This document shows, one piece after another, positions 1,341 through 25,027 of a DNA stretch of 64,000 bases. Source of the DNA: a bacterium (GTDB taxonomy: Bacteria; SAR324; NAC60-12); assembly GCA_965205865.1 (NCBI GenBank), contig CBDBHR010000030.1, forward strand, positions 896,001 through 960,000, in the 5' to 3' direction. The notes under the pieces were generated by a model, which saw nothing but the letters and a program-made list of their open reading frames with translations, ran no database searches and was not told the DNA's origin. The translations under genes and the position numbers were made by a program. Positions within the stretch are counted from its first letter, which is position 1; every line of letters begins with the position of its first letter.

Positions 1341-1345
1341 ATTGA

Positions 1346-1375: not shown

Positions 1376-1418
1376 TGTTTTATTTGAGATATTAGAGAAA
1401 TGCTTTAGGATTTGAAGC

Positions 1419-1536: not shown

Positions 1537-1737
1537 AGAGCCGCGGATTCATGGCAACTACTTTTCTCATGCCTCTGCCCCTATGGAGAACCAATCTTCT
1601 TCTTTGGGCGAAAAGTGAAGGCAAGAGCTCCATTTTTCTTTCTTTACCCACATCTTCTTCTACCCACATTGAAAATCACCTCCCGTGCTAATCCTTGGTT
1701 ATTGGCTTTGGCGGCCTCATAGATGAGGGAGAGCCTC

Positions 1738-3651: not shown

Positions 3652-3675
3652 GTCACACACCTCATTACGATTTCC

Positions 3676-4265
3676 CCCGTCATTCCCGCGAAAAGCCTGC
3701 CCCGGACTGGATCCGGGGCCGGAATCCACCTTCCACGTCTTTCCGGCCCCTTCCACTGAAGGGCGCGGCACTCTCTAAGGTGCGAATGACCCCTGCCAAG
3801 AAACTGGCCTCTCACCGTTTTGGGGAGTCCAGAGGGGTGAAACCCCTTTGAAACGGGGGTTCAAGGGGGTGTCCCCCTTGATTCCCCCCATCATTCCGCC
3901 GAAAGGCGGAATCCACCTCCCCCGTCATTGCGGTGAAAACCGCAATCCACTTAGACGATCCCCTTGCCCGGCTCACACGGCACTCCCTAAGGTGCGCATG
4001 ACCCTTGCCAAAAAAACCTGGCCTCTCACCGTTTTGGGGAGTCCAGAGGGGTGAAACCCCTTTGGAACGGGGGTTCAAGGGGGTGTCCCCCTTGATTCTC
4101 CCCGTCATTCCGCCGAAAGGCGGAATCCAGAGTAATTTCAAATGGTTGCGTTTTCTGGATTCCGGGTCTCCGCCCGGAATGACAGTGAGAAAGCGCTGCT
4201 CGCAATGACATTCCACTCAACCCCGTCATTGCGAGCCCCGATTTATCGGGGCGTGGCAATCTCGT
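3676..4265. repeat. Cluster of REP-like palindromes containing a ~150-bp direct repeat
   Basis: Multiple GTCATT(C/G)C...G(G/C)AATCC hairpins; 3766-3914 repeated at 3979-4128. Confidence 0.75.
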
Positions 4266-4353
4266 CGCCCTCTCCAGGGGTATGGGAGCTGGGAAGCCTG
4301 AACCTCCCAGCTCCCTTTTTCCCTAAGGTCACAAGCCACAAGGGGTGAAACCC

Positions 4354-6153
4354 CTAATGACCCATTGCTTTCTTCAGCTCACTATCAATCCAGAGGCGGG
4401 CGTAGACGGTGTTATACTGACCGCTTCCCAGGAAGTATTCATTGTTGTAGCCTATGACCCACGGCTGGACTGGCAAGAAAATTGGGGGCATAGGACCAAA
4501 TATCGCCCAGAACTTCTCTATCGCATACTGGTGCATCTCTCCAAGAATCCTGTTCTGCTCCTCGATGGTGGTAGCGGCTCCGGCGTCTTCAAACTTGGCG
4601 TTATACCACGAGTCGTTGACATTGGAGGTGTTCCATGGTGCGTCCTTCTGATAGCGCTGTAGGATTACCGATAGGATCCACCTCCCGGCCGCTTCCGCAC
4701 TGATCATTTCGAAATCGTCCTCACTTCTTCTAGCGACAAAGTCCGCTGTTGTCACTACCTGAATCTCGACATCAACGCCAATCTTATTCCAGTATGAAGC
4801 GACTAATTCTACATAGTTCAAATCATAGACATCGCGGTGGTAATGGGTGACCTTGAATCGAACGCCGTCCGCGCCGCGCTTGTATCCGGCCTCATCAAGC
4901 AACGCTTCGGCACCTTCCGGGTCGTAGTCAAAGACCTTCTTGACATCTTCGGGCCACTCTTCAAAATTCGGGATAGCCTCTGTCATATTACGGTTTACCA
5001 GCCCCTGGGGTGTCACATCTGCATAACCCTTATAGTAGGCGTTGTTAATTGTCTCGAGGTCAATGGCCATCTGCATTGCCTTGCGCACCCTGATGTCGTC
5101 AAAGGGCGGCAACTTAACGTTCATACCAAAACCATTCACCGAGTCTCGAGAATACGAATCTATCACGAGTTCGGGGTTAGTCCGCTGCAGGCTCTCTACC
5201 TGGTCGAGAGTCCTGAATGTGTATCCAATATCAACCTTACCTGTGCGCAGTGCCGCCAGTTGTGTTGCCACTTCTGGCATAAACAGGGCCCTTAACTGGT
5301 CAATATACGGCAGGCGGTACTCCGGGTATTTTTCGTCGTAGCCCCAGTAGTCAGGATTCTTGTCCCAGGTGACAGAACTGCCCTCGACATACTCGGTCAG
5401 CATCATGGGTCCGGTGCCGACCAGGTTCCTCCAGTCCGTAACGTCCCCGTGTTCCTTGATGACCTCGGGGGGGTATATCCAAGCAGCGTTCTCGTCGAGG
5501 ATAGCAGCCAGCGCTTGGAGGTTTAGCTGCTTCAGCTTAAAAACAACCGTCCACTTGTCGGTGGCTTCTATCGATTCAAATTCCATACCGGCAAAGCCTA
5601 CAGCATGTTCGCTACGTTCGGTGAAACCGCTGCCCATACCCAACAGACGGTGATAGTTGTATTCGACGTCGTATGCATCTAGCTCCCGACCGTTCATCGG
5701 TGGTTTATCATGCCAGTGAACGCCCTGTCGGACTTTGATGACATACGTCAGTGGGTCGGGCTGCGACCAGCTTTCCGCCAGTTGACCTCTCGTGTTAGTT
5801 GGAACGTTGTGATACTGGAAGTCTTCTATGTCCCTGGGCGTTGCCCAGTCCATCATGACCAGTTTCTCGTTGACGCCACCGCAGTAGCTTTGTGACCATA
5901 CACCAGAGATCACGGCGTCAGGACCCGCCGGCTCATCTGCTAGGGCGAAGGTGAATGTCCCGCCGTATTCAGGAGCAGTCACGACCTTACCTGTGCTGGG
6001 GTCGGTGACATACTTCTTCTCAGCCGCGGCTGTCGGGCCGACCCAGAGGGTTGCGCCCAGAATGAAAGCCAGCAGCACCGAGAGGAGTTTCATGGCAGAC
6101 CTGGGGCCTGCCGGGTTCAGCCCCACGAAGGAGGCGACAAGTTTTTTACTCAT
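4354..6153 (-). CDS. ABC solute-binding protein, family 5 (SBP1)
   Basis: PEYGG, LAESW, GVHWH, GTGP, PFDDIRVRKA motifs; RBS-preceded ATG at 6153, with a further in-frame start at ~6288. Confidence 0.9.
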   Translation of the reverse strand: MSKKLVASFVGLNPAGPRSAMKLLSVLLAFILGATLWVGPTAAAEKKYVTDPSTGKVVTAPEYGGTFTFALADEPAGPDAVISGVWSQSYCGGVNEKLVMMDWATPRDIEDFQYHNVPTNTRGQLAESWSQPDPLTYVIKVRQGVHWHDKPPMNGRELDAYDVEYNYHRLLGMGSGFTERSEHAVGFAGMEFESIEATDKWTVVFKLKQLNLQALAAILDENAAWIYPPEVIKEHGDVTDWRNLVGTGPMMLTEYVEGSSVTWDKNPDYWGYDEKYPEYRLPYIDQLRALFMPEVATQLAALRTGKVDIGYTFRTLDQVESLQRTNPELVIDSYSRDSVNGFGMNVKLPPFDDIRVRKAMQMAIDLETINNAYYKGYADVTPQGLVNRNMTEAIPNFEEWPEDVKKVFDYDPEGAEALLDEAGYKRGADGVRFKVTHYHRDVYDLNYVELVASYWNKIGVDVEIQVVTTADFVARRSEDDFEMISAEAAGRWILSVILQRYQKDAPWNTSNVNDSWYNAKFEDAGAATTIEEQNRILGEMHQYAIEKFWAIFGPMPPIFLPVQPWVIGYNNEYFLGSGQYNTVYARLWIDSELKKAMGH

Positions 6154-6297
6154 AATAACCTCTTTTATTTGAGGGTTTTGAGAATGATTCACCCGCTGTG
6201 GGGCGAATCGGAGTTTCGCGGCGGGCACGGCGCCTGCCACGGGGAACTCTCTGCAGAGGGCGAAAAGTTTCTTCGCGAGCATCTTCATCCGGACTAT

Positions 6298-6708
6298 TTT
6301 TTTGACCAGAATGGGTCTTTTTTGAGGAAAATGAGCGTTTGGAAACCGAGCCCTTCTATTTATATAACGTACCAAGAGCCAGAATATCACCAAAAAAATC
6401 AAATTTTCTCAAAAATTTCCTGAAATTGCTTTCTTTTTTTGACCAGAATGGGTCTTTTTTGAGGAAAATGAGCGTTTGGAAACCGAGCCCTTCTATTTAT
6501 AGAACGTACCAAGAGCCAGAATATCACCAAAAAAATCAAATTTTCTCAAAAATTTCCTGAAATTGCTTTCTTTTTTTGACCAGAATGGGTCTTTTTTGAG
6601 GAAAATGAGCGTTTGGAAACCGAGCCCTTCTATTTATAGAACGTACCAAGAGCCAGAATATCACCAAAAAAATCAAATTTTCTCAAAAATTTCCTGAAAT
6701 TGCTTTCT
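6298..6708. repeat. Three tandem 137-bp direct repeats
   Basis: Units start at 6298, 6435 and 6572; identical except one base; each includes the last ~36 nt of the sigma gene. Confidence 0.95.
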
Positions 6709-7278
6709 GGCGCGGTACAACTGTTGGGCGATCCGGTGCTTTTCCGTTTGGCTCAGTTCCTTTCTAGGAAGCGCCAACTCCTCGGCGGCAAGGGCTTCCA
6801 GGGACAGCCCGTCCCAATAGCAGCGGCGCAGCAGCCGAGCGGTCTGGGGATGCTCGTCTTCCAGTTGTGTCATAGCCTCTCCTGCCCGCTCAATCTTCTC
6901 TTCCTGCAATTCCGCCGACTGGGCCTGCCACCAGGCCTGCATAGAGCGCAGGTCATCCACCTCTTCCGGGGCAGCGAGTTCCGGCTGCCGTTTGTCACGT
7001 CTGATTTGGTCCAGCAGATGATTCTGAACGACTCTGTACAGCCAACCCAGGAAGGCTTTATCGGCCTCGCCTTGGAATTTCTCCAGCTTGCTCTCCCACA
7101 AATCCTTCCAGATTTCCTGAACCACCTCATCGGCCTGATGGAGGCTCCGAAACTTGCCAATCAGCGATTGGGCAGTGTGGAGGATATATGCCCTGTAGTG
7201 TTGGTACAACTCCTCAAAAGCCTCTTCCTTCCCTTGAACGGACCCCTCCAGCAGTACCCGCAATGGTTTCCGGTTCAT
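6673..7278 (-). CDS. ECF-type sigma-70 factor
   Basis: AFEELYQHY, ADEVVQE, FLGWLYRVVQNHLLDQIR (region 2); C-terminal region-4 HTH (GLSLEALA...LYRARKQF). Confidence 0.88.
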   Translation of the reverse strand: MNRKPLRVLLEGSVQGKEEAFEELYQHYRAYILHTAQSLIGKFRSLHQADEVVQEIWKDLWESKLEKFQGEADKAFLGWLYRVVQNHLLDQIRRDKRQPELAAPEEVDDLRSMQAWWQAQSAELQEEKIERAGEAMTQLEDEHPQTARLLRRCYWDGLSLEALAAEELALPRKELSQTEKHRIAQQLYRARKQFQEIFEKI

Positions 7279-7469
7279 CGTTGGACTCGGTTTTGATTTT
7301 CAGCCAAGAACGCCCAAGAACAGCCTCAATATAGGAAAAGCAAGAGGGAAACGCAAGGTGGGGAAAACCGGCCTTGCCATGGAAACCGTTTGCAACTGAT
7401 TTGGAGTCCTTTTTGTTCTAATTGTTCGGCGACTGTCATAAGAACCTCGTGAGCCTCTTCTATCATCGT

Positions 7470-7745
7470 AAATCCGGGGACAGTTACTAATTAATTGCAA
7501 TGGATTCCTTCATTTGATAATGGTTGTAAATAATTATCGAGCATTGAATTTTCACTTCAGCAATGGGAGGTAAGCTAGCCAGGTTAGCGAGAGTGGTACT
7601 TCCAGGGGTCCCCCATCATGTCACCCAAGGAGGGGTTCGCTCCATAAAAATCTTTTCAAGTGACGAGGATCGCAGAGAGTATCTCTCTCTGCTCAACGCG
7701 CATGGAGAAAAAGAAAGATAAAAATTAGTAACTGTCCCCGGATTT
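7470..7745 (+). mobile_element. Internally deleted RAYT-type element with 23-bp terminal inverted repeats
   Basis: AAATCCGGGGACAGTTACTAATT (7470-7492) and its perfect inverse (7723-7745) enclose RAYT N-terminal fragment ARLARVVLPGVPHHVTQGG...DEDRREYL. Confidence 0.75.
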
Positions 7746-7863
7746 TCGAGACTAAATACTCTAAGATTTCTCCGGCGATGGCTGAAGGACTGGCTCAGAA
7801 AATCTACTCCATAGAAGAATTATTGATGATCAGAAGACCATCATAACTTTGTCATACAGTACC
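7746..7863 (+). mobile_element. IS1-family transposase 3' remnant with right end
   Basis: ISPAMAEGLAQKIYSIEELL resembles the IS1-family TPAMA.GL...W...ELL C-terminus; ends ...TACC. Confidence 0.5.
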
Positions 7864-7990
7864 CAGACGGCAATATGCTCGTCCTGTTTCCCTCTTTCGT
7901 GTATGAGAATTACAAGAAATTTAACGAAGAATCGAAGTAGGATTCGACCCGTCGCTCATTAGCCGAGGGGTCATAGCCGCTCATTCTAAT

Positions 7991-9160
7991 CTATCTCAAT
8001 TCCTGTTCAACGAGCCTGGACCAATAGCTCACGCCAAGCGGCAGGATCTCGTCGTTGAAATCGTAGTTTGGATTGTGGACATAACAGCCGCCTGGACCCC
8101 CTTCAACCCCGTTTCCGATAAAAATATAACAACCGGGACGCTGGTTCAGCATCCAGGAAAAATCTTCGGCTCCCATCGTGGGCGGTTCATCACGAAGAAT
8201 GTTTTCAGCCCCAACGATTGCGGCTGCCGCTGCGGCCGCCTTTTCTGTTTCAATCTCTGTATTGATCGTCGGCAGATAACGCCGATCGTAGCTGAATTCG
8301 ATTCCTACCCCATAGGTGACCCCAACGCCTTCAGCGATTTGCCGTAATTCACGCTCGATCATGTCCTGAGTTTTGGGTTTCAACGCGCGAGTGGTGCCTG
8401 ACAGGACAGCCTCTTCCGCAATCACATTCGAAGTATGCCCCGCATGAACCTGGGTAATACTGACGACGGTGGAATCCAGGGGATTGGTCCGGCGAGCCGC
8501 AACTGTCTGGAAAGCATTGATAATCGCCCCAGCGGCAACCACCGGGTCGTTTCCGTGATGGGGGAAGGCGCCGTGGGCGCCAACACCGGTGATCTTGACC
8601 TCAAAGAAATCGGCCGAAGCCATCACCGGACCAGGTTTGACTGCAAACTTGCTAACGGGCAGCCCTGGCGCGTTGTGCATGCCATAGACAGCCTTGCAGG
8701 GGAATTTGTCGAAAAGCCCATCATCCACCATCACCCGCCCGCCGGCGAGGTTTTCCTCTGCTGGCTGAAAAATAAAATGGACGGTGCCATCGAAATGCTT
8801 CGTTTCTGCTAAATAACGTGCCGCACCCAACAACATCGTGGTGTGGCCGTCATGCCCACAACCATGCATTTTGCCCTCGTGGACAGATTTGTGATCGAAC
8901 TCGTTTAGTTCATGAATGTCGAGAGCGTCCATGTCGGCGCGTAAGCCGATCGACTTCGTGCCATTCCCGACTTTCAACGTCCCGACCACACCGGTTTTGG
9001 CAAGACCTCGATGGACTTCGATGCGATAGGATTCAAGCAATTTCGCAACAATTCCCGCAGTACGCTCTTCCTCGAAGGCGGTTTCGGGATGAGCGTGGAT
9101 GTCTCTGCGGATGCGGGTGAGTTCGTCGTGTGATGCTGCAATGCGGTTGTCAATAATCAT
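7991..9160 (-). CDS. M20 amidohydrolase (hippurate hydrolase-like)
   Basis: HAHPE, LRADMDAL, MHGCGHDGH, FQPAEE, MGAEDF motifs. Confidence 0.93.
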   Translation of the reverse strand: MIIDNRIAASHDELTRIRRDIHAHPETAFEEERTAGIVAKLLESYRIEVHRGLAKTGVVGTLKVGNGTKSIGLRADMDALDIHELNEFDHKSVHEGKMHGCGHDGHTTMLLGAARYLAETKHFDGTVHFIFQPAEENLAGGRVMVDDGLFDKFPCKAVYGMHNAPGLPVSKFAVKPGPVMASADFFEVKITGVGAHGAFPHHGNDPVVAAGAIINAFQTVAARRTNPLDSTVVSITQVHAGHTSNVIAEEAVLSGTTRALKPKTQDMIERELRQIAEGVGVTYGVGIEFSYDRRYLPTINTEIETEKAAAAAAAIVGAENILRDEPPTMGAEDFSWMLNQRPGCYIFIGNGVEGGPGGCYVHNPNYDFNDEILPLGVSYWSRLVEQELR

Positions 9161-9313
9161 GTATGTCTCCTCTTTTGATTTAAGTCCCAATGGTACGTCG
9201 TTAGTTTCCGGGCTTATGAAATTATTAGCGCAAATTTTTATTCTCTTTCCAAAAAAAAGTCAATGCGATCCAGCAGTGACTCGCCGGTCGGGAGTTCTAC
9301 TAAATAACACTGA

Positions 9314-10333
9314 TTAACTCGGATGGGTCGGCGCATGCTCGTCCCAAATGCGCCACCAGAGCAAACGCAGTTGTTTGGCTTGGTTTCCGGTTTCTTGTGG
9401 TAGTTGTTCCGCATTGATCGGTTGCACCCCATCGTTATTGATTATGCCCACGGCAAATCGGAATGCATAGTAAGGGACGATTCCCATCCGCAAATCCGTG
9501 ATGACGACCTTATCTTCTTCTTTGCTGACCCTGTAAAACCCTTTACTGAACCATGTTAGTCGCTGCACGGCCCATTGGTTAGAAATTGGTTGCAACAAGG
9601 CAGGTTGGCTTTCAAATCGTCTCCATTGCACTTTTGTTGATTGGTCTAATAATGAATATAATCCATCATAGTAACCATTGTTCTCCATCACAATGATTCG
9701 CCACAAAAGTGAATTGAAAGGAGTCGGAGTGGAGAGAAGACGTTCATAGGAGATGTTTTGCCGTCGCAACGATTTTTCCGCCAAATCATCAATGTAAAAT
9801 TTCGCTCCGACGGTCCAGGTCAAGTAAATACAAGCAAAGGCCAAACCAATCGAATTTAAATGATTTCCGAGGGACGAGGAACGCCGCATCCACAAGGCAC
9901 ACAACAAACCGGTCAATAAGGGTATGGTAATTGCGGGGTCAATGATAAACACGGTGGACCAAGTGACCGGATGACTGGAAAAGGGTAACCAGATTTGCGT
10001 ACCATACACAGTGAAGCAATCCAACAAGGTATGAGTGTAGAAAGCTAAAATGACTAATAAACCCCAGGTCACACGATGGGAGCGAGTGTTTGGATGAATG
10101 CGAAGGATGAACCATACCAGCAATGGCATGGCAAGCGTCATGAAAAAGAAAGAGTGGCTCACACCACGGTGGTAAGTGAAATCGCTCACCGGATCTCCCA
10201 TTGAGAAGAAAACGTCCAGATCGGGAAGCGTACCACACAGCGCACCCCAAAAGGCCGCGCGTCGACCCACTTTCCGCCCTAATACTGCTTCTCCAACAGC
10301 AGCTCCGAGGGTCAATTGCGTGAATGAATCCAT
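9314..10333 (-). CDS. Metal-dependent inner-membrane hydrolase (YdjM-like)
   Basis: MDSFTQ, PDLD, HRGVSHS, HTLLD..T.YGT motifs. Confidence 0.85.
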   Translation of the reverse strand: MDSFTQLTLGAAVGEAVLGRKVGRRAAFWGALCGTLPDLDVFFSMGDPVSDFTYHRGVSHSFFFMTLAMPLLVWFILRIHPNTRSHRVTWGLLVILAFYTHTLLDCFTVYGTQIWLPFSSHPVTWSTVFIIDPAITIPLLTGLLCALWMRRSSSLGNHLNSIGLAFACIYLTWTVGAKFYIDDLAEKSLRRQNISYERLLSTPTPFNSLLWRIIVMENNGYYDGLYSLLDQSTKVQWRRFESQPALLQPISNQWAVQRLTWFSKGFYRVSKEEDKVVITDLRMGIVPYYAFRFAVGIINNDGVQPINAEQLPQETGNQAKQLRLLWWRIWDEHAPTHPS

Positions 10334-10691
10334 AGCGCATGAATTTTTGTTGTTTCTTTTTTGGATAAAAACCTGTTTCGTCCTATTGCAAAAAAGAACT
10401 TTGCCCAACCTCGAGTTTCAGGTGGGAACATCCTGCCAATACTGCCGTGAAGTTGAAAAGTGATGCAAAAGGTAGATTTGCGAATTCCCAAGTAAAAAAT
10501 GGAAACGGTTTATGAATCCCGCTAATTTTTAGGTAACCTATTGAATTTATTGCAATAGATGTGTGAAAGTTTTGTTGACAAAGGGGATGGAACTACTATA
10601 AATTCAATTGGCGGTAGGTGAAGTACTCCAAATATTTAATTGATAGAGGAACCGTTTCAGCCCACCATTTGTGAAGCAGTGTTCCCTTTAA

Positions 10692-12078
10692 TTGGTAAAA
10701 AATTTAAAATCTCATACTAACATGCTTGCCATTCCCAACCAAGCGTTGATCCTCCATAGCATCTACTTAGGCGTGATTGTCGCCCTGATGCTCTCCAACA
10801 GCATGTTCGCATTCACTCTGAGAGAGACGAGCTACTGTTATTATGTAGGATTTATCGCATTTTTAGGAGGGGCGCAGACGCTGGAAAATAAGTTTTTTTA
10901 TGAGTTTTTTGGGCCAATATTATCCCCGTGGAGCCTGAAAGCCTGGCCCATCTTGATGGGTATCAGTCTCTCTTTCGCATATTTGTTTGTGCGTCGTTTT
11001 TTACGCACAAAAGAAAACCTGCCAATTTTCAATTCCTTGCTTGTCGTCCTTTTGGTGATCAGCCTGTTGACCTCTGTGATTGCTGCCATTTTTCCCCAAT
11101 GGTTCTTGTTACAGTTGATGAAAATTTTACTTCTCGTTTGGGCAGTCTTGGCAATTTATGCAGGTGTTCGACGATGGCGGCAAAACTTTCGACCTGCTCG
11201 ATTTTACCTTTTAGCCTGGATTTGCCTGGCAGTCGCGAGCTTTGAGGGATTGTCTTCAGACTCAACGGAAGCGCTAAACGTGGAAGGGATCACATGGAGC
11301 ATTTATTTGAGTTCTTTATTGGCCGTAGTTCTCTTAGCTCTTGCGTTGATAGACTGTCTCAATGCGTCCCGTCAAAAAAGCGAATCCACCTTGAGAGAAA
11401 GATTGGCTGAAGCTGAAAAAGTAATGCGTTTGACCGATATATTCAATCGTTTTGTGCCACATTCAATGATCCAATGTTTACCAAAAAAGCACATCATCGA
11501 TGTTCAGACTGGGAGACTACGTTCAGCAAGAAATGAGTGTGCTGTCAATGGAAATTCAAAATTATCCGGTGCTATCCGCAGGACTATCGCCCCCCGACAA
11601 CCTTGATTTTGTCAACCAGTTTTTAAATGAAATGGGGCCCGTTGTGCGAAACCACAATGGTTTCGTGGGGAAATATAAGGCGACTGGGATAACAGCATTT
11701 TTCCCCGATAAACCTGAAGACGCTGTTGCTGCCGGAAGGAAAATGCTGAAAAGAGTGAAACAACTCAATCAGGATAAAAAAGCAAATGATACGACTATCG
11801 AAATCGGAATCGGCGTTAATTGTGAAGTCCTCCTTCTGGGAATTGTTGGAGAAGTGGGACGCATGGAAGGGGCTGTCATCTCCGATGCGGAAATTGTAGC
11901 GGTCCATTTGCAAGCGCTGACGAAATCGTATCAACGGCCCTTTCTGATTACTGAATACACTCTTGCGGCACTGGTGGAGTCAAACAATCCGTTAATCGAA
12001 TTTGTCGACCGTGTCCGGGTGCCGGGAAAATCGAATTTGATTGATATTTTTGAAGTAAAAAAGAAACCATGGGATTAG
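10692..12078 (+). pseudogene. 7TM-DISM membrane domain plus class III adenylate/guanylate cyclase, frameshifted
   Basis: Hydrophobic 7TM region (PARFYLLAW), RFVP linker, cyclase segment (IGIGVN, GIVGEVGRMEGAVISD); frameshift near 11505. Confidence 0.75.
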
Positions 12079-12098
12079 ACTCTGGTACTTCGTTAGAA

Positions 12099-12815
12099 TC
12101 ACACTCCTAAATAACGGTGCCGAGCATCCAAATCTTCTGCGAGCAATGCCGAATCTCCCGACCATACGATGCGACCCCTCTCTAAAATATAATGATGATC
12201 GGCAAAGCGAAGGAGGGATTCGATGTGTTTGTCGATGACAAGGATTGATTGTCCGGTCTTCTTCAAGACTTCAAGACAGCGCCAGATTTCCTTGCGAATC
12301 AGAGGGGCTAAGCCTTCTGTCGCTTCGTCAAGAATGAGTAAACGGGGATTGGTCATCAAGGCGCGACCGATGGAGAGCATTTGCTGCTCCCCTCCGGAAA
12401 GTTGGTTCCCGCGATATTTTTGGCGCTGTGCCAGGATGGGAAAAATTTGCAAGACCCGTTCGAGGGTCCAGGGAGCAAGGGATCTTGTTTGAACGGAATC
12501 TCAGCGGATTCCTTGCTGTTGCCAGTAGATTTTCCTTGACTGACAAATTGGGGAAAATCTGACGTCCTTCCGGCACCAATCCCACGCCAAGTCGGGCAAT
12601 CCGGTAGGAGGGAAGGTGCTGGATTTCTCTCCCTTCCAGCAGAATTTTTCCTCGATGCGTCGGTGTCAATCCGATGATGGAGCGCACGGTTGTGGTTTTT
12701 CCCATGCCATTGCGTCCCAAAAGAGTGACAGCTTGCCCTTCTTAATTTTGAGATCGATGCCAAATAAAACCTGGCTGCTGCCATAAAACGTTTCGATTTT
12801 TTGCACTTCCAACAT
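12099..12815 (-). pseudogene. livF: Liv-type ABC ATPase (LivF-like), two frameshifts
   Basis: GRNGMGKTT, LSGGEQQML, LILDE spread over three frames (shifts near 12740 and 12480). Confidence 0.8.
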
Positions 12816-15467: not shown

Positions 15468-16646
15468 TTATAACTCACAATCTCTGGCATAGGCATCCAC
15501 ATGGTTGGTAAAAACTTTTTCAATCGTTTTGTTTGTCAGGCTACCGTCCGCTTTTTTGAAAACTTGACGGAGGTAGAAATCCTGGACAGGATGCTGATTT
15601 TTGCCAAACATGAAATTGCCGCGAACTGATTCGAAATCCGCATTTCTCAGTGCTTCCCGCAGACTGTCCGTGTCCGATACATCGCCATTGAGCGCTTTGA
15701 GAGCGCTGGCGATCAGCAGAGCCGCGTCGTAACCCTGGCTGGCATAGACGGTCGGATACTTGCCGTGTTTTTTACGATAGGCATGCACGAATTGGCGACT
15801 GCTGGGGTTATCAAAGTCGTGATTCCAATGAGTCGTATTATAGAATCCTACCGTCACTTCTCCAATCGCTTTGAGGATGCGTTCATCAAACGACCAGGCG
15901 GGACCGTAGACATTTATTTCTTTATGCAATCCTGCTTGTATGAATTGCTTCATGAAGTTGATACCCATGCCGCCAGGCAGAAAGAAAAAAATGCCTTTGG
16001 GCTTCGCGGCGCGCAAGTTGGAGATTTCTGCGGCATAATCGGATTGTCCCAATTTGACATAGACCTCTCCGCTAACCGACCCTTTGTAAAAACGCTTGAA
16101 TCCGGCAATCATATCCTTTCCTGCCTGGTAATTGACCGAAAGCAGGTAGGTGTCTTCTTTGCCCTTCGTCGTTAAATAATTCCCCATCGCCTCAGGTATG
16201 CCATCGTTCTGCCAGGAGACGTTGAAATAATTTTTATCACAACCTTTGCCGGCAAACTTGGAAGAGCCTGCATTGGGGCTGATAAAGATTTTTCCCTTGC
16301 GGGTTACTTTTGGAACTACGGCATTGAGGACGTTGCTGAAAATGATGCCCGTAACGATATCGACTTTATCACGATTTATGAAGCGCTCGGCAATTTCGAT
16401 GCCTTTTTGCGGTTTTCGGTTGTCATCCTCCACCAATAGTTTGATTTCGATGCCACCGAGGGCGCCTCCTTCTTTCTCCATCGCCAGTATGAAGCCATCT
16501 CGCACTTCCTCGCCCAAATATCCGGATCCCGTGGAGAGCGTTGTGATCATTCCGATTTTAACGGGGGCGGCCGTCAACAGGCTGGAACTGAAAAAGATTC
16601 CACAGACTGCAACCATAAATGATAAATAAATTTTTATTTTTTTCAT
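15468..16646 (-). CDS. Liv-type ABC substrate-binding protein
   Basis: Signal peptide, VKIGMITTLS, LVEDD, QGYDAA; first gene of the liv operon. Confidence 0.88.
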   Translation of the reverse strand: MKKIKIYLSFMVAVCGIFFSSSLLTAAPVKIGMITTLSTGSGYLGEEVRDGFILAMEKEGGALGGIEIKLLVEDDNRKPQKGIEIAERFINRDKVDIVTGIIFSNVLNAVVPKVTRKGKIFISPNAGSSKFAGKGCDKNYFNVSWQNDGIPEAMGNYLTTKGKEDTYLLSVNYQAGKDMIAGFKRFYKGSVSGEVYVKLGQSDYAAEISNLRAAKPKGIFFFLPGGMGINFMKQFIQAGLHKEINVYGPAWSFDERILKAIGEVTVGFYNTTHWNHDFDNPSSRQFVHAYRKKHGKYPTVYASQGYDAALLIASALKALNGDVSDTDSLREALRNADFESVRGNFMFGKNQHPVQDFYLRQVFKKADGSLTNKTIEKVFTNHVDAYARDCEL

Positions 16647-17224
16647 GAAAACTCCCGGGAAAATGTCTCCGCGGCAACCCTTTGCAACCGCAACTGCGTG
16701 GTCGGATAAAATAATTTTCCCTGTCCTTCCTATACCAGGGTCGCAAGTTTCGAAACAACGAGGCCACGTAAATTTCATGATATTGGTTTCTGTGGTTGAG
16801 AAACAAGCTTTTTTTCTCGTAGCTGGCCGGTGATATTTTCAGCCTCATCGGAGAGGAGGAAGGCCAACATTTTGTTCCGACGCAGGATTGGGGACTGCCA
16901 CGTCTGCAGACGTACATTTCCGCGGCAATTGCTGTATCACTCTTGTCGCCACCCTCAGTCACTCGGATCCTGCAGGTATTGTCCTCAGTTGGATGCAAGA
17001 AAATATTCCATGTTGCTGCAGCCAGCTTTGAAAAATATCGCTACGTAATCTGAGTTCGATATAAATCTTCAATAATATGAGTATCCTAGCGTATATTTCA
17101 TCCTCAGATCGATGAACAACTCTTGCGCTTAAAACAATTTCTTATTACCAATACGCAAGTCCGACCCCATTTCTATAAATCTTTTGTTTTGAATAAAAAA
17201 TATTTGAAAATTTTTGTAATTTGC

Positions 17225-17252
17225 TTGCTTTTATAAATATATACTTTATGAT
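17225..17252 (+). promoter_or_regulatory. Putative sigma70 promoter for the structured RNA
   Basis: TTGCTT-N16-TATGAT preceded by an AT-rich tract. Confidence 0.5.
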
Positions 17253-17255
17253 GTA

Positions 17256-17688
17256 GGTGCTCTAATCAAAATAGAGCAAGAGGCCAGGACGGGAATCAAA
17301 CCCGTATGTCAGATATTGCTAGTATCTGATCCTACCTTTGGATACCTGGCCATGTAGAAGTGTTTTGGCGCTGTTACTCTCACGGCCTCTAGAGTCAAGC
17401 TAGAGAAGGCAAACGGAATTGGGACTCCGTCTTGTCTGCCAATTATTTCACTTCTACGGCAGTTTGTCTCTGAGCGTATGCTTATTTCGCCACAGAGACA
17501 ATTAGTATAGAGCGGAGTAAGGGATAAAATTCTATCCCTCTCCGCCTATCTCATTTTAATCTAATTGGTTTGGGGTCACTCATTAGAGGAATAGCCAAGA
17601 AAAAAAACACTTTTCCGTCCATAAATCAGGGTGACCGATTTGCGTGTAGTCCTCAGCATTTGGCACTACAATTTTTGATAAACGCACC
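17256..17688 (+). ncRNA. Candidate large structured ncRNA of unknown family
   Basis: ORF-free; more than 10 helices, two multibranch domains, loop-loop complementarity and 5'/3' end pairing, all read directly from the sequence. Confidence 0.6.
17281..17351 (-). other. tRNA-like cloverleaf (anticodon loop CT-AGC-AA, U73, no CCA)
   Basis: GGCCAGG TA TCC AAAGGTA GGA TC AGATA CTAGCAA TATCT GACAT ACGGG TTTGATT CCCGT CCTGGCC T; all four stems perfectly paired. Confidence 0.6.
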
Positions 17689-17983
17689 ATTTATTTCAAG
17701 AGTTTGAGTCATTCCTTCAAAATGGATCAAAGGAACGCTCCAGTCACTCATCAGGATCAAGGAGTGGGCCGATCTTCAGGTCCGACTCCCCTGGCAAAAT
17801 AATTTGCCCTGGAAAAACATATGTACCTTGTTGTGTCCAATGGTTTGTACAGGCTTTTGGCTCACGGTTCCGTCCGCGTCCATCCCCTTGATGGCTCACC
17901 GCAAGGGCGTTCGAAAATTGTATTGCTTTCATCTGAGGGGTTGGAGACCGCTTTCCAATCAGGCTAATGGCTCGTTGGAAGGT

Positions 17984-18060
17984 GGTCAGGCCTTTAATTA
18001 AATAAAAAGGAAGCAAAAAAACAAGACTCGTTCCTAATCAAATAATCAAAGGCCTGACCC
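17984..18060. repeat. GGTCAGGC-type inverted repeat element
   Basis: GGTCAGGCCTTTAATTA / TAATCAAAGGCCTGACC (16 of 17 complementary); related to the hairpin at 25033. Confidence 0.6.
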
Positions 18061-18154
18061 CCTCTTAAGAACACATTAGAGGATTCCTCCATTTGTCAAG
18101 GGACCGTATTTGAACCGATACTTGCACTGGGGAGCACAACTCGTTTTGATACAA

Positions 18155-20413
18155 ATGGCAAAAAAATCGAAGCAACACAAGAACGTCCATTATCTGGCAC
18201 ATGTTCGTCAAGAGGATGACCACTTCATTCCACACGACCTGGACGAACACTTACGTGGAGTAAGTAAACGAGCAGAAGAGTACGCTCGTGTCTTTGGCAG
18301 CGGAGATTGGGCACAGGTAGCAGGATTGTGGCATGACCTGGGAAAATACAGTGCGGAATTTCAGCAGCGTATCAAGTCAGTGTCTGGTTATGAACCCGAA
18401 GCACATCTTGAAGGTCAGAGTGGTCGAGTTGATCATTCGACCGCTGGGGCACAGTACGCGATTGCGCAATTCGGGTTGCATGGACGGATCTTGGCTTACC
18501 TCATTGCTGGTCATCATACGGGATTGCCGGATTGGCAGTCCAGCGATACTGCCGGTGCGGCGTTAAAAGCAAGACTAGATGATGGCAGACACTTAGAACG
18601 AGCACTAAATCAACCGATTCCTCCTGAGATTCTTTTGCAGCCTAAACCTGATAGCATCCTGCTGGGCAAAGCCAAAGGCTTCACCTTGTGGATACGCATG
18701 TTGTTTTCATGTTTAGTTGACGCAGATTTTTTAGATACCAAAGCGTTCATGGACGCGGACAAGACTGCGCAACGTATAGATACTCTGAGGGTCCAAGAGT
18801 TGTTATCATGTTTCAATACCTACATGGAGAGAAATTTTTCAGAGGTTCCGCAGACGTGCGTGAACTGTACCCGCACCAACGTGCTTCGTCAGTGTCGGGA
18901 CAAATCGCACGAATCACCAGGACTGTTTTCGTTGACAGTTCCTACTGGTGGTGGCAAAACGTTGTCGAGTCTCGCCTTTGCTTTAGAGCATGCTAAACAC
19001 CATGGTAAACGGCGGGTGATTTATGCCATTCCGTATACCAGCATTATCGAACAGACTGCAAACTTTTTCCGCGAAATATTTTCTAATGCTGTCGTTGAAC
19101 ACCATAGTAACCTCGATCCCGAAAAGGAAATGGTGAAAAGCCGCTTGGCAGCAGAGAATTGGGATGCGCCATTGATCGTCACCACCAACGTTCAGTTCTT
19201 CGAGTCGCTTTTTGCCTCTAAAACCAGCCGTTGCCGCAAGTTGCATAACATCGCTGATAGTGTGGTGGTCCTGGACGAGGCTCAACTTCTACCGCCTGAG
19301 TTTTTACAGCCAATTCTCGACGTGATGAATCTACTAGTGCACTATTACGGTGTTACCTTTGTATTATCAACTGCAACCCAACCTGCGTTGAGCACGCTTC
19401 AAACTTTCCAACGTACACTTCGAGGTCTTGAGCAAGTGCGCGAAATCATTGACAACCTGGATACTCTGGATCATGACCTGGAACGCGTTACCGTTTCAAT
19501 GCCGAAAAACTTCCGAAAAACGCAGGAGTGGAACGATATTGCACAGCAGATTCAGCAGCACCCTTCTGTATTGGCAGTGGTTAACTCTCGTTCCGATGCA
19601 CGTGAATTGCACCGGCGGATGCCTGAGGATACGGTGCACTTGTCAGCCCTCATGTGTGGAGAGCATCGCTCACGCATTATCGCCGATGTGAAACAGAGGT
19701 TGTGTGTAGGAAAGGTGCGTGTGGTTAGTACGCAATTGGTAGAAGCCGGCGTGGACTTGGATTTTCCCGTGGTATACCGAGCCCTTGCCGGCCTGGACTC
19801 AATTGCCCAAGCGGCTGGAAGGTGTAATCGCGAAGGTAATCTGAAAGATCGCGAAGGTAATCTGAAAAGGGGTCAAGTTTTTGTATTTATACCGCCTAAA
19901 CCCCCCCCACCCGGAATTTTTCGGCATGCGGCAGACACGACCGTTTCGTTGTTGACAATGAATCCCGACAATCCACTAGAACGGGGTTTATTTCGAAGTT
20001 ACTTCCAGCATTTCTACAAGGGTACTGCATCTCTCGATAAACATGATATAACCAGATTGCTGACACCACAGGGAGACAACGACGATCCATTGAAAGTCCA
20101 GTTTCGCACTGCTGCTTATCGTTTTCAATTAATCGACGACTCGGGCTATCGCAGTATAATTGTGCAATATGGCAGCAGTCCTGCATTAATCTGTCGCTTG
20201 CAGAAAGAAGGTCCGGAACGTTGGCTCATGCGCAAGCTCCAGCGCTACACCGTATCGCTGCCAGAATATCAGTTTCGGAAATTGCTGAGCAACAGCGATG
20301 TGGATGAAATCTATCCCGGCATGTTCGCACAAACTTCGGATGTTCTGTATCACCCAGTAATAGGGGTTTTGGTCGATGACACGAACCTTGATCCAAACGT
20401 TTTGATCAGTTAG
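18155..20413 (+). CDS. cas3: CRISPR-associated HD nuclease/helicase Cas3
   Basis: HDLGK, GHH, DADFLDT, PTGGGKT, DEAQ, SAT, QAAGRCNR; the ORF could also start at 18110. Confidence 0.95.
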   Translation: MAKKSKQHKNVHYLAHVRQEDDHFIPHDLDEHLRGVSKRAEEYARVFGSGDWAQVAGLWHDLGKYSAEFQQRIKSVSGYEPEAHLEGQSGRVDHSTAGAQYAIAQFGLHGRILAYLIAGHHTGLPDWQSSDTAGAALKARLDDGRHLERALNQPIPPEILLQPKPDSILLGKAKGFTLWIRMLFSCLVDADFLDTKAFMDADKTAQRIDTLRVQELLSCFNTYMERNFSEVPQTCVNCTRTNVLRQCRDKSHESPGLFSLTVPTGGGKTLSSLAFALEHAKHHGKRRVIYAIPYTSIIEQTANFFREIFSNAVVEHHSNLDPEKEMVKSRLAAENWDAPLIVTTNVQFFESLFASKTSRCRKLHNIADSVVVLDEAQLLPPEFLQPILDVMNLLVHYYGVTFVLSTATQPALSTLQTFQRTLRGLEQVREIIDNLDTLDHDLERVTVSMPKNFRKTQEWNDIAQQIQQHPSVLAVVNSRSDARELHRRMPEDTVHLSALMCGEHRSRIIADVKQRLCVGKVRVVSTQLVEAGVDLDFPVVYRALAGLDSIAQAAGRCNREGNLKDREGNLKRGQVFVFIPPKPPPPGIFRHAADTTVSLLTMNPDNPLERGLFRSYFQHFYKGTASLDKHDITRLLTPQGDNDDPLKVQFRTAAYRFQLIDDSGYRSIIVQYGSSPALICRLQKEGPERWLMRKLQRYTVSLPEYQFRKLLSNSDVDEIYPGMFAQTSDVLYHPVIGVLVDDTNLDPNVLIS

Positions 20414-20422
20414 GAAAGGGTA

Positions 20423-21154
20423 ATGAAAATCTACTATCTTGAAGTCAGTGGCGACTTTGCTTGTTTCACGCGACCGGAGATGAAGGTCGAGCGTGTCAGT
20501 TATGACGTGATAACGCCTTCGGCTGCGCGTGCCATATTTGAAGCAATTCTTTGGGAACCGGCTATACGCTGGCAGGTGAGAAAGATTGAAGTACTTAAAC
20601 CTATCAAGTGGATCAATCTGCGTCGTAACGAAGTCGGCAGCATTGCTTCGACACACAATATCGAAAGCACGATGAAATCCGGAACCGGTCAGTTAGGGAT
20701 ATATATTGAAGATGAACGCCAACAGCGTGCAGGCTTGTTCCTTCGTGACGTCCAATACCTCATTCATGCGTCGTTCAAGATGCGTGATCCCAGTTCGCAC
20801 AAGCCGAACTTTCCACAGCTGAGTATACGAACGGCGAATGGAGGCGAGTTTGATATGTACAACGAACCGAACCAAGCGGTGAAATTTATGACGATGTTCG
20901 AACGTCGCGCTGCCAAGGGGCAGTGTATTAATCAACCCTATCTAGGCTGTCGTGAATTCGCAGCAGAATTCCGGTTAGTGGAGCCAGGGGACTCACGATC
21001 ACAACCGATTGCTGAGACGCGTGAGTTGGGCTACATGCTGTACGATCTGGACTATCGTAATCTCGCCGATCCCAAGCCACTTTTTTTTCAAGCAAACTTG
21101 GTGAACGGCGTGGTGGACGTTCCAGACTGGGACAGCGAGGAGGTGCGAGGATGA
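20423..21154 (+). CDS. cas5: Type I-C Cas5
   Basis: GDFACFTRPEMKVERVSYDVITPSAARAIFEAILW, PYLGCREF. Confidence 0.95.
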   Translation: MKIYYLEVSGDFACFTRPEMKVERVSYDVITPSAARAIFEAILWEPAIRWQVRKIEVLKPIKWINLRRNEVGSIASTHNIESTMKSGTGQLGIYIEDERQQRAGLFLRDVQYLIHASFKMRDPSSHKPNFPQLSIRTANGGEFDMYNEPNQAVKFMTMFERRAAKGQCINQPYLGCREFAAEFRLVEPGDSRSQPIAETRELGYMLYDLDYRNLADPKPLFFQANLVNGVVDVPDWDSEEVRG

Positions 21155-22953
21155 TTCTGCAAGCGCTCCACGGCTATTACGAAAGGAAAACCAAATCGGT
21201 AGACAACTCAATACCTCCGGAAGGATGGACTCGGCGAGAAATCGACTACGTTTTAGTTCTCAACAATTCGGGTGAATGCGTTAACATTGAAACGGTTTTT
21301 ACAAAGCAAAAAACAAAGATCATAGGCCGGAACGTAATGCTCCCGGCTATAGGTAAACAAGCCCTAAAACATACAAATAGCGGGAAAGATGCAAACCTTC
21401 TCTGGGACAACACGAGTTTTGTTTTTGGAAGGGGAAACAAAGGCAGCTTAAAAATTAAAAGCTTTATATCAACGATTGATGAATGGTTACAGGATTGTCA
21501 CGATGATGAGGGAATCAACTCTGTAAAAATATTCTGTGGAAGGCTAGCAAACAAGCCGGACTGCACTGACCGTCTTTTAGCTAAATTTGATTTGACTGAA
21601 GACTTTGAGAGACGTGATCCTATTGTTGTATTTCGCTTGGTTAGCGATGGTCCGATTTACATACCGGATCGTTCTGCGGTTAGAGCAGCATACGACAAAG
21701 CGCGATTGTTATCTGCTTCTACCAATAAACATGGAACTTGTTTAGTCACTGGTGGAGAGAAAGAGCCAATTACAAGAAACGAAATGGTCATAAAAGGAGT
21801 TTGGGGTGCCCAGACGTCGGGAGCAAACGTCGTTTCATTCAACGAGCGTGCTTTTGAGTCGTACGGAAAGCGAAAACGTCAAGGAGAAAATGCCCCAATC
21901 AGTCAGTCCGTATCTTTCGCTTACACCACGGCGCTCAACCACTTGCTTCACAGAGATTCGCCGCAGCGTCTCCAAATCGGAGATGCGAGTTCGGTGTTCT
22001 GGGCCGACAAACCTACAGAATTGGAAATGGGAATAGTGGACATATTTAGCGAGCCGCCTCAGGATGATCCGGACCGCAACATTAATGCGGTAAGAAGTCT
22101 CTACACTGCCATCGATTCAGGCTTGTTGGAGAAAGACCAAGGCAAAGCAAAATTCTTTGTTCTGGGTCTTGCTCCCAATGCAGCACGTATCGCCATCCGT
22201 TTTTGGTACCACGGCACGGTAGCAGAAATAGCTGGACGGATTAAACAGCACTTCGATGATATGGCTATTGAGCGCTCACCCCGTGATCCGCTCTATCTTT
22301 CGTTGTTTCGCTTGCTGGTATCAGTGGCAACGCAAGGCAAAGCGGACAATATTCCACCGAATCTTGGTGGTGAGTTGATGCGAAGCATTCTCGTAGGTCT
22401 GCCCTATCCATACACACTGCTCTCGGCTGCCGTGCGCCGGATTCGTGCCGAGCAATCGAAAAAACACCCTAAGGGCCGATTTGTTCAGAATGTTACATAT
22501 TCCCGTGCTGCGTTAATCAAAGCTTGCATCAATCGTGCAACCCGTTATTCAAACCCTGTTATGAAGGAGGAACTAAGCATGTCTCTAGACGAATCCAATA
22601 CAAACGTTGGCTACCGGCTGGGTCGACTGTTTGCGGTGTTGGAGAAGATCCAGGAAGAAGCCAATCCTGGAATCAATGCTACCATACGCGATCGTTACTA
22701 CGGTGCAGCGTCGAGTACGCCGGTGATTGTATTCTCGATTCTGCTGAAGCTTAAAAACCATCATCTTTCTAAATTGGAGAAACCCGGCCGTGTAGTGAAT
22801 ATGGAAAAGCGCATCGGTGAAATCATGGAGAATCTCAGCGATTTCCCAGCGCGATTGTCCTTGGAAGACCAGGGTCGCTTCGCTATCGGCTATTATCACC
22901 AACGGCAGAATTTTTTCAAGAAAACTAAATCAACCTTAATGGAAGGAGACTAA
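21151..22953 (+). CDS. cas8c: Type I-C Cas8c (Csd1)
   Basis: [46 protein letters not shown]; probable internal Cas11 start at MSLDESN after AAGGAGG. Confidence 0.93.
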
Positions 22954-22955
22954 AC

Positions 22956-23840
22956 ATGGCAATCGAGAACCGCTACGACTTTGTTTTATTATTTGACGTG
23001 AAAGACGGCAACCCTAATGGTGATCCGGACGCGGGTAATTTGCCACGTGTTGATGCTGAGACCGGGCGTGGGCTTGTGACTGACGTGAGTTTGAAACGCA
23101 AGGTCCGTAACTACGTTGGTATTGTGAAAGAAGAAAAGCCGCCATTTGAAATTTACGTAAAGGAAAAAGCAATCCTCAATAAGCAGCACGAACGCGCCTA
23201 TGAAGCCATTGGCGCTGGTGAATCTCTCAAGGGAGAAGATAAGAAGCGTAAAGGTGGGGACAAAGTAGACGAGGCGCGTGCTTGGATGTGCAAAAATTTT
23301 TATGACGTGCGTACTTTCGGCGCAGTAATGTCTACTGGTGTGAACTGCGGTCAGGTGCGAGGTCCCGTACAACTCACTTTCGCACGTTCGGTGGATCCTA
23401 TCGTTGCCCAGGAACATTCAATTACTCGTATGGCGGTGGCGACGGTGGCGGAATCCGCTAAACAAGAAGGTGACAATCGAACTATGGGCCGCAAACACAC
23501 TGTGCCTTATGGCCTTTACGTAGCGCATGGTTTTGTCTCGGCGCATCTCGCAGATCAAACAAAATTTTCCGATGACGACCTCAATTTATTGTGGAATTCG
23601 CTCGCCGACATGTTTGAACATGATCGTTCAGCCGCACGCGGAGAGATGACAACTCGTGGACTGTATATATTCAAGCACAATTCGCGGCTGGGAAATGCAC
23701 ACGCGCATCGTCTTTTCACATGTATTCAACCCAAGCGGAAAGAAAGTGTCATCGTACCACGAGATTTTGAAGATTATAATATCTCGATTAATAAAAAGAA
23801 CCTGCCCAGTGATGTGAATTTGATTCCTCAAGTAGGTTGA
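22956..23840 (+). CDS. cas7: Type I-C Cas7 (Csd2)
   Basis: [44 protein letters not shown]. Confidence 0.95.
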
Positions 23841-23844
23841 AGGT

Positions 23845-24180
23845 ATGGGTATTCCAACCTTAACTGCATGGTCCGATGATGATCCCATCATGATCTCCGC
23901 CCTGGAGCATTTCAGCTATTGTCCGCGCCAGTGTGCATTGATTCACCAGGAACAGACGTTTGATGAAAATCTGTACACTCTGCGAGGGCGAGCAGTTCAC
24001 GAGCAGGTTGATGAAAAGGAAGTGATTGTTGTTTACCAGAAACGTAAACAGGAAGAAATCCAGCATCCCATCATCGAACGAAAAGTTCCTATTGGACTGA
24101 TTCCTCATGTCCAAGCCCGTTTACTGGCTCGGGTGTTGCGGGGGGATATGGAAGACTATCTGCCCTTTTTGTATCGCTAA
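23845..24180 (+). pseudogene. In-frame cas4(N-terminus)::cas1(C-terminus) deletion fusion
   Basis: ISALEHFSYCPRQCALIH...LRGRAVHEQVD (Cas4) joined near 24015 to KEVIVVYQKRKQEEIQHP...QARLLARVLRGDMEDYLPF (Cas1c). Confidence 0.88.
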
Positions 24181-24212
24181 AAGGTTAGACGGAGGTTGAA
24201 ACAAACAACATA

Positions 24213-24503
24213 ATGCAAGTCTTGATTACGTATGATGTAGCTACAGAACAGAAAGTCGGAAAACGGCGGCTGCGGAGAGTTGCTCAACTGTGCAAGAACT
24301 TCGGCCAGCGGGTGCAAAAGTCTGTCTTCGAGTGTTTGGTCGATCAAGCGCAGTACGAGCAACTGGTTCGATCTCTTGTCAAATGTATTGACGAGAAGGA
24401 GGACAATTTGAGGATTTATCGTTTAAGAGAGCCCAAAGAGCAGTATTGTCAGCACTTTGGAGTAGCTCCTTCGATTAACTTTGATGACCCGCTTTTAGTC
24501 TAA
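24213..24503 (+). CDS. cas2: Cas2
   Basis: LITYDV, RLRRVA..C.NFGQRVQKSVFEC, DNLRIY. Confidence 0.95.
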   Translation: MQVLITYDVATEQKVGKRRLRRVAQLCKNFGQRVQKSVFECLVDQAQYEQLVRSLVKCIDEKEDNLRIYRLREPKEQYCQHFGVAPSINFDDPLLV

Positions 24504-24714
24504 TTAAATGTATCTAAGCTTCGGATCTTGTGAAAAGAGCGAACCTGAAGCGAGGGCATAGAAACGGGCAGGATCGCGATGGCTGTAAGTCCCGGAATTT
24601 TATAGATTTTCTCGTTCCCTGCGTTGTTTCGTTATCAGACTTTCAGGACAGTTCAAGGAGGATCGCGGAAACGAGGGGAAAATCCTAAGCAAATCAACTG
24701 CTTGGGAGGTTAAA

Positions 24715-25027
24715 GTAGCGCTCAACCTCCGGGTTGGGTGAGGATTGAAACTAGCATAATAATATTGAGTTTTTTCATCAAAAAAAGCGTAGCACTCAAC
24801 CTCCGGGTTGGGTGAGGATTGAAACTAGTGTAAGAGGATTGAAACTTGATGAAGTGAGATCAATGAGAGGAGTTCCGAAGTAGCACTCAACCTCCGGGTT
24901 GGGTGAGGATTGAAACATATTCAGATGGTGGATTTGGATGAAAAAATACAGTAGCACTCAACCTCCGGGTTGGGTGAGGATTGAAACTAGTGTAAGAGGA
25001 TTGAAACTTGATGAAGTGAGATCAATG
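24715..25027 (+). CRISPR. Short degenerate CRISPR array with 37-bp repeat GTAGCACTCAACCTCCGGGTTGGGTGAGGATTGAAAC
   Basis: Full repeats at 24715, 24789, 24880 and 24951; 12-bp partial repeats at 24834 and 24996; spacers of 37, 34 and 34 bp; leader between cas2 and 24714. Confidence 0.95.

Follow-up and report, generated by a model that had tools for sequence, protein, structure and literature searches.

When the minus strand of positions 17281–17351 is folded, a tRNA-like cloverleaf is obtained, and ARAGORN calls a tRNA-Ala(agc) there (17280..17351, minus strand). The question raised by this locus is whether the cloverleaf is a decoding tRNA, a mimic of a tRNA or a part of some other RNA. We analyzed it within the window, that is, the whole stretch of 64,000 nt of bacterial DNA, starting from a reading made from the letters alone (the sequence-only reading), and our own re-reading of the sequence agreed with its description of the minus-strand cloverleaf.

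Sequence and structure of the cloverleaf

On the minus strand, the acceptor stem consists of 7 bp (GGCCAGG/CCUGGCC) and is followed by U8 and A9. The D arm has a 3-bp stem and the loop AAAGGUA, which contains GG, and the anticodon arm has a 6-bp stem (7 bp with the flanking U-A pair included) and the loop CU-AGC-AA. Between this arm and the T arm lies a short variable region; the T stem has 5 bp (ACGGG/CCCGU, including G53:C61). C56 and A58 are universal in tRNA T loops; the T loop observed here, UUUGAUU, has A58 and carries U instead of C56. At the 3' end, the discriminator is U73 and CCA is absent.

As a control for the ARAGORN call, the 4.74-Mb genome was reversed without complementing. This control yielded 0 calls, compared with 48 on the real genome, and the cloverleaf shape is therefore not a chance product. 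The minimum free energy (MFE) structure of the 76-nt cloverleaf stretch was the cloverleaf, with energies of -27.4 kcal/mol (z -3.0) on the minus strand and -31.4 kcal/mol (z -4.9) on the plus strand. In an Rfam scan at gathering thresholds, the cloverleaf was unmatched (the gathering score of the tRNA family RF00005 is 29 bits), and two real tRNAs near 58 kb scored 63–67 bits in the same scan. With E values of up to 10, tRNA-Sec was the member of the tRNA clan that matched the cloverleaf best, with 21.9 bits (E 0.22) and a cut-off of 47. The identity pair of tRNA-Ala is G3:U70, and the sequence-only reading had noted its absence correctly, position 3:70 being C:G. The genome already carries tRNA-Ala genes with GGC and UGC anticodons, as called by ARAGORN.

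CCA is encoded in 44 of the 48 ARAGORN calls, and the cloverleaf is among the four without it. The other calls without CCA are C30:541638–541712, C28:90179–90265 and C29:633713–633801. The first is a 75-nt tRNA-Phe(gaa) that ends in ACC and has nearly the same acceptor stem as the cloverleaf, and the other two are over-long calls (87 and 89 nt), which may be pseudo-tRNAs or false calls.

A conserved block restricted to one genus

The cloverleaf sits within a sharply bounded conserved block of ~300 nt (17258–17556). Using a 281-nt query around the cloverleaf, we found matches in 2 of 41 related genomes, namely the genome of the window and G001. The latter is the sole other species of the genus in the genome set, and only two full element sequences were available for comparison. 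Conservation with G001 begins at 17258 and ceases near 17556; within these bounds the mean column identity is 91%, and the flanks are unalignable.

The element is single-copy in each of the two genomes. The neighbors of the block in G001 are a fumarylacetoacetase-family (FAH) gene on one side and folK on the other, both identified by translations and tblastn. The corresponding folK–FAH pair of our genome is on another contig, where the spacer is different and the block is absent. Here, the element lies within a non-coding stretch of 1.3 kb that is flanked by a Peripla_BP_6 solute-binding gene and a type I-C cas3, and left-hand synteny with G001 stops at 16817.

We further searched for the element in genomes of the family (45), the order (64) and the phylum (88), including many incomplete ones, with a covariance model, R1, built on 17279–17460. 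The full element (225–226 bits) was found only in our genome and in G001 among the 88 phylum genomes. Exact-pattern scans of the genome contig collection yielded G001 only, and scans of the metagenome contigs (two patterns) and the viral contigs gave no match; the element was likewise unmatched by blastn against the phage and plasmid collections. When 16500–18200 was compared with Rfam 15 at E values of up to 10, nothing was found over 17258–17556 except the weak tRNA-Sec match. We rejected an identity with 6S RNA, RNase P RNA, SRP RNA or tmRNA, as all four genes are located elsewhere in the genome, and we rejected the small open reading frames in the cloverleaf (7 codons on the plus strand, 14 codons on the minus strand), which are not kept in G001. 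Nothing on this RNA was found in the open-access literature. The element is an unannotated RNA, restricted to one genus among the genomes searched.

Expression of the element

Part of the stretch is contained in 17 public runs, 8 of which are recorded as RNA, and four runs were aligned to positions 16950–17850. As these data are contigs, each has a single depth figure, and neither the strand nor the exact ends can be read from them. Over 17260–17570, the summed contig depth was 584–12,170 in run X2, ~582 in X3 and 720–2,416 in X8, and most flanking bins had depths of 0–30, with the exception of a dispersed repeat at 17046–17105. In X1, the kind of which was guessed, the depth was 4.4. The element is a highly expressed RNA, the expression of which was far above that of the flanks in three RNA runs from two studies. 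The repeat at 17046–17105 is ~60 nt long and has 72 BLAST rows genome-wide, including itself, at 84–95% identity; it is also present in RNA-run contigs with differing flanks.

The boundary between the cloverleaf and the domain that follows it is spanned by contigs from three studies (X8, 17279–17578; X1, 17277–17516; X3, 17149–17491). The earlier claim that the cloverleaf is part of a larger RNA is upheld by these contigs and by the ~300-nt block, whereas the accompanying claim, that the cloverleaf is antisense to that RNA, is only probable. Other X2 contigs diverge from the window at 17274, 17290 and 17385, and could be strain variants or library chimeras.

Architecture and conservation of the structure

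Read on the plus strand, the element begins with a 5' hairpin (17258–17278) that has a 6–7 bp stem and a 7–9 nt loop. In G001 the stem of this hairpin is the same except for the loop-closing pair, which is changed together with two loop positions. It is followed by a first four-way junction (17282–17351), which is the cloverleaf as it appears on the plus strand, and by a second four-way junction (17355–17457), in which three hairpins lie within a 9-bp closing helix (17355–17363 with 17449–17457) and a 5-bp helix. Both species have the same loop, AGUCAAG (17393–17399), in the second junction. A further hairpin (17464–17501) has a 9-bp outer stem, a 3-bp inner stem and an 11-nt loop, and the two innermost pairs of its outer stem are broken in G001. 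The element ends in a terminator-like structure (17507–17566), that is, a long interrupted G+C-rich hairpin (17507–17549) and a U-rich tail. Nearly two thirds of the bases of the element are paired, and the free bases are found in short hairpin loops.

We compared the folding energies of the element with those of shuffled sequences for both strands and both species, and the element was much more stable throughout. In our genome, the values were -119.4 kcal/mol (z -7.85) for the plus strand and -111.5 kcal/mol (z -7.04) for the minus strand, and in G001 they were -108.5 kcal/mol (z -6.26) and -101.1 kcal/mol (z -3.68), respectively. We also counted the differences between the two species at paired and unpaired positions. 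On the MFE structure of our element, 15 of 196 paired and 27 of 103 unpaired positions differed (P = 3e-5). On the consensus structure, which was derived from the same two-species alignment so that these contrasts are partly circular, 4 of 168 paired and 35 of 123 unpaired positions differed, and the four paired differences make up two compensatory changes from C-G to U-A. The same structure gave 0 differences in 38 paired columns of the cloverleaf, compared with 9 in 33 unpaired columns (P = 5e-4), which bears out the remark of the sequence-only reading that the perfect stems argue against simple decay.

One of the compensatory changes, from C-G in our genome to U-A in G001, is at 17369/17438 in the second junction, and the other is at 17475/17489 in the hairpin 17464–17501. 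Position 17369 reads U opposite an unchanged G17438 in all four runs examined, and U·G is the intermediate of a change from C-G to U-A. Taken together, these substitution patterns indicate that the structure of the element is under selection.

Departure of the cloverleaf from tRNA identity

The copy in our genome is called by ARAGORN, which by default is silent on the G001 copy. The latter is called only at thresholds of 95%, in line with the relaxed cut-offs proposed in the sequence-only reading, and then as a tRNA-Thr(agt); it carries C33, and its anticodon stem contains two mismatches. No change is seen in the acceptor, T and D stems of G001, and G18 G19 and U8 are kept on the minus strand of both species. 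In the T loop, however, each copy has changed a different universal position, since G001 has UUCGGUU with G58 and our copy has U56. These T-loop departures suggest that tRNA identity has been under weaker constraint since the two species diverged.

The anticodon arm of G001 is rebuilt on the plus strand as a different 8-bp hairpin with a shifted register and a UCUU loop. Four of the five substitutions in this arm (17308, 17313, 17318 and 17321) create or improve pairs of the new hairpin, which includes a U·G pair that would be A·C on the minus strand. This pattern indicates that selection keeps a hairpin at the position of the anticodon arm and not the anticodon loop itself.

A decoding tRNA-Ala(AGC) was accordingly rejected on the basis of the sub-threshold Rfam score, C3:G70, the lack of CCA, U56 in one copy and G58 in the other, and an anticodon arm that is not conserved in G001. 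In this respect the sequence-only reading was borne out. Its proposal of a mimic, decoy or bait for tRNA-targeting enzymes, in contrast, was not supported, since the G001 copy has AGU at the anticodon position, C33, two stem mismatches and changes in the T loop. The comparison that it had named as decisive against its view, homologues that keep the stems and randomize the tRNA-consensus loop bases, largely describes G001, although this is a single homologue and G18 G19 are kept.

Derivation from a tRNA gene

Apart from the two full elements, all matches of R1 (29.7–38.6 bits) were real tRNA-Cys(GCA) genes on the opposite strand (7 of 7, from seven genomes). The ARAGORN call with its clean reversed-genome control and these antisense tRNA-Cys matches together indicate that the cloverleaf module is derived from a tRNA gene. 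With bacterial tRNA-Cys(GCA), it shares a length of 72–74 nt, a D arm with a 3-bp stem and a short loop, a variable region of 4 nt, the G1-C72/G2-C71/C3-G70 start and U73. It differs from them in its anticodon loop (CUAGCAA instead of CUGCAAA), in its anticodon stem of 6–7 bp, in the absence of CCA and in being embedded in a 300-nt RNA that is probably read on the other strand.

The identity elements of tRNA-Cys are the U73 discriminator and the GCA anticodon. We rejected a tRNA-Cys identity, as U73 is found without GCA: the anticodon position holds AGC in our genome and AGU in G001. In pairwise comparisons with tRNAs of the same genome, the identity was 53/72 for tRNA-Cys and 52/72 for the tRNA-Phe at C30:541638. 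In a multiple alignment, the cloverleaf matched tRNA-Cys genes at 42–44 of 71–72 positions, whereas tRNA-Cys genes matched each other at 66/72 or better. The shape thus points to tRNA-Cys as the parent, tRNA-Phe is about equal by plain identity, and the parent is uncertain. A role of the plus-strand RNA as an antisense to real tRNA-Cys was rejected, because the alignment contained no long contiguous complementarity.

Strand of transcription

The transcript is probably the plus strand. Promoter-like elements were seen by eye on this strand at 17225–17252, where TTGCTT (17225–17230) is separated by a 16-nt spacer from TATGAT (17247–17252). They follow a very A+T-rich stretch and lie 5–7 nt before the block in both species; in G001, TTGTTT, 16 nt and TATTAT are found at an equal distance from the block start in flanks that are otherwise unalignable. 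At the other end of the block, a G+C-rich hairpin and a U-rich tail were observed, again by eye, in both species. A consensus scan listed neither signal: the first hexamer, TTGCTT, matches at only 3/6 positions, and the terminator was probably omitted owing to the bulges that interrupt its stem. What the scan did list was a promoter-like site on the minus strand (17699–17671), which precedes the block when that strand is read; in total, the scan found three sites in the region, compared with 2.1 expected by chance.

Four observations favor the plus strand. The MFE of this strand is lower by 7.9 kcal/mol in our genome and by 7.4 kcal/mol in G001. Three invariant G·U pairs on the plus strand would be A·C on the minus strand. 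The variant U17369 stands opposite G17438. Finally, the folK stop of G001 is only 18 nt from the right end of the block, so that a minus-strand promoter would have to lie inside folK. On the other side, RNAalifold slightly favors the minus strand by consensus energy (-96.8 versus -94.35), a difference that is not decisive alone, and six single-sided changes from G·U to Watson–Crick pairs fit minus-strand helices.

We also considered, as an unlikely though serious alternative, that the transcript comes from the minus strand, with a tRNA-Cys-like module at its end that is recognized by RNase P, 3' trimming and the CCA-adding enzyme. The module would then be a processing or stabilizing signal, or a tRNA-like decoy that is released. 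MALAT1/mascRNA offers a parallel for such a tRNA-like 3' processing module. Every tRNA-consensus feature (U8, G18 G19 and the T-loop-like sequence) is found on the minus strand only; G18 G19 and U8 are kept in both species, and G19 can pair with position 56 in both (U in our copy, C in G001). In addition, two RNA-run contigs end at 17277 and 17279, which is 2–4 nt past the discriminator base, and the element of G001 lies after folK on the same strand, so that read-through could supply its transcription. The promoter-like site at 17699–17671 and the slightly better consensus energy from the alignment are further points in its favor. However, the anticodon arm and loop are not conserved, the universal C56 and A58 are changed in our copy and in G001, respectively, and ARAGORN misses the G001 copy at its default setting. 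Single-sequence folds favor the plus strand in both species, and the minus-strand fold of G001 is ill-defined (z -3.7, with an MFE structure that differs from the centroid). Nothing is conserved where the minus-strand promoter would lie. As for processing, abundant contigs continue through the predicted RNase P site at 17351/17352, and the contig with its end at 17279 agrees with the genome at that end, so it shows no added CCA.

Less probable explanations: a decaying pseudo-tRNA or a mobile element

The cloverleaf might also contribute nothing to the RNA. In such a case, it would be a decaying pseudo-tRNA beside or within a real small RNA that consists of the second domain and the 3' hairpins. 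The mutation of universal positions, the eroded anticodon arm of G001 and the lack of CCA agree with such decay. We nevertheless regard it as improbable, because none of the 38 paired columns differ, compared with 9 of the 33 unpaired columns (P = 5e-4, with the structure taken from the same alignment), because the anticodon arm in G001 has been rebuilt rather than lost, and because the divergence of the cloverleaf does not exceed that of the remainder of the block (9 differences in 71 columns, compared with ~10 in the 103 positions of the second domain), in surroundings of intergenic DNA that is unalignable.

Another explanation, which we consider very improbable, is that a mobile element left the block behind or carried it as cargo. 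The block would then be a tRNA-like attachment site, a unit resembling a MITE, or a small element of ~630 bp in circular or tandem form. The element lies at different loci in the two species, and our copy is at a synteny break near insertion-sequence debris and dispersed repeats. Moreover, in a 661-nt contig of X3, position 17645 is joined to 17149 via 135 letters that are absent from the window, and the contig ends overlap by 30 nt. This join may reflect a circle or a tandem repeat of ~631 nt in a related strain, and a weak inverted repeat (12/16) is present at its ends (17153–17168 and 17630–17645). The flanking repeats could give the same join as an assembly artefact, however, and each genome has one copy. 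The homology with G001 spans the 300-nt RNA only and not 17149–17645, no match was found in the phage, plasmid, viral-contig or metagenome-contig collections, and the IS110 loci of our genome have no similarity to the RNA. A link to IS110 bridge RNAs was rejected for the RNA itself, as neither R1 nor blastn found similarity to six IS110 loci.

Neighboring DNA

The 400 nt to the right of the RNA (17576–17973) are 71.5% identical to C29:660597–660981, which lies ~200 nt upstream of a truncated IS110-family transposase gene. The stretch 17576–17973 may be a relic of an IS110 left end, and it has no similarity to the RNA itself. A paralogue of the RNA beside the 71%-identical stretch on C29 was rejected, since R1 without filters gave at most 8 bits there. 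An 85-nt hairpin repeat (17977–18063) has tens of genomic copies and drew spurious Rfam microRNA matches; one copy is ~100 nt upstream of a truncated IS110-family open reading frame at C30:218730.

Further to the right, 18110–24987 holds a type I-C effector cassette by Pfam (Cas3, Cas5, Csd1/Cas8c and Cas7), followed by a CRISPR array of four repeats at 24713–24987. There is no open reading frame of at least 140 amino acids between cas7 and the array, and cas4, cas1 and cas2 seem to be missing. The best G001 match to Cas3 is just 41% identical and is located elsewhere.

A probable tRNA-derived module in a structured small RNA

The explanation that we favor, with somewhat better than even confidence, is that a tRNA-derived module has been built into a structured small RNA of ~300 nt, which is genus-restricted, single-copy, highly expressed and most likely transcribed from the plus strand. 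According to this explanation, a tRNA gene would have been captured as a structural module, and its tRNA-like face would be the complement of the plus-strand RNA. Selection would keep a stable four-way junction, that is, the acceptor, T and D stems and some hairpin in the position of the anticodon arm, and the RNA would neither decode nor serve as a conserved mimic of a tRNA. We infer that it may instead be a stable RNA with a structural or protein-binding role, comparable to 6S, Y and CsrB-type RNAs. Since about two thirds of the element are paired and its invariant free bases are in short loops, recognition by a protein or by loop–loop contacts would fit better than a linear seed, and a role as a structural or protein-binding small RNA is our best guess.

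Larger, abundant bacterial RNAs with a tRNA-shaped module are represented by tmRNA and the bacterial Y RNA YrlA, in which the tRNA features are conserved and functional in the sense strand. The element shares with them a tRNA-shaped module inside a larger, abundant RNA, but it is unmatched in Rfam, its tRNA features are not conserved, its module is probably in the opposite orientation, and the tmRNA of this genome is encoded elsewhere. With the msr-msd RNAs of retrons it has in common that it is a structured non-coding RNA. The sequence-only reading had raised the idea of an msDNA-type reverse-transcribed cDNA, which found no local support: there is no reverse transcriptase among the 17 open reading frames scanned with Pfam at 8–28 kb (7991–28012), and the neighbors of the element in G001 are an FAH-family gene and folK. 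To our knowledge, no bacterial example has been described in which a tRNA scaffold is read antisense to the old tRNA in a new RNA, and none was found in the open-access literature. A tRNA-shaped product outside translation is also represented by tRNA(Other) of Bacillus cereus, reportedly a pseudo-tRNA that acts as a small RNA and whose gene is located beside a genomic island (PMC3399842). That RNA is tRNA-sized and in the tRNA sense, whereas the cloverleaf here is one domain of a larger RNA and its loops are not conserved. The element belongs to none of these known RNAs.

As a more far-reaching and rather doubtful proposal, the element might be a young, genus-specific, abundant RNA born by the capture of a tRNA gene, either as an antisense, mirror-image scaffold or, in the tRNA sense, as an RNA whose 3' module resembles tRNA-Cys and is handled by the enzymes of tRNA processing. 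If the latter form were true, the element would be the bacterial equivalent of MALAT1/mascRNA, or would act as a decoy for toxins that target tRNAs.

For the annotation of this genome, the result removes a false call of tRNA-Ala(AGC), and the speculative decoy gives way to an unannotated RNA of ~300 nt, the depth of which in matching metatranscriptome contigs is far above that of the flanking DNA. The favored explanation would make the locus a natural case in which a tRNA gene became a structural module, with stems that are frozen, loops that drift and one arm that has been rebuilt in a new register. As the element is confined to one genus and lies at different loci in its two species, it may inform how new small RNA genes arise and move.
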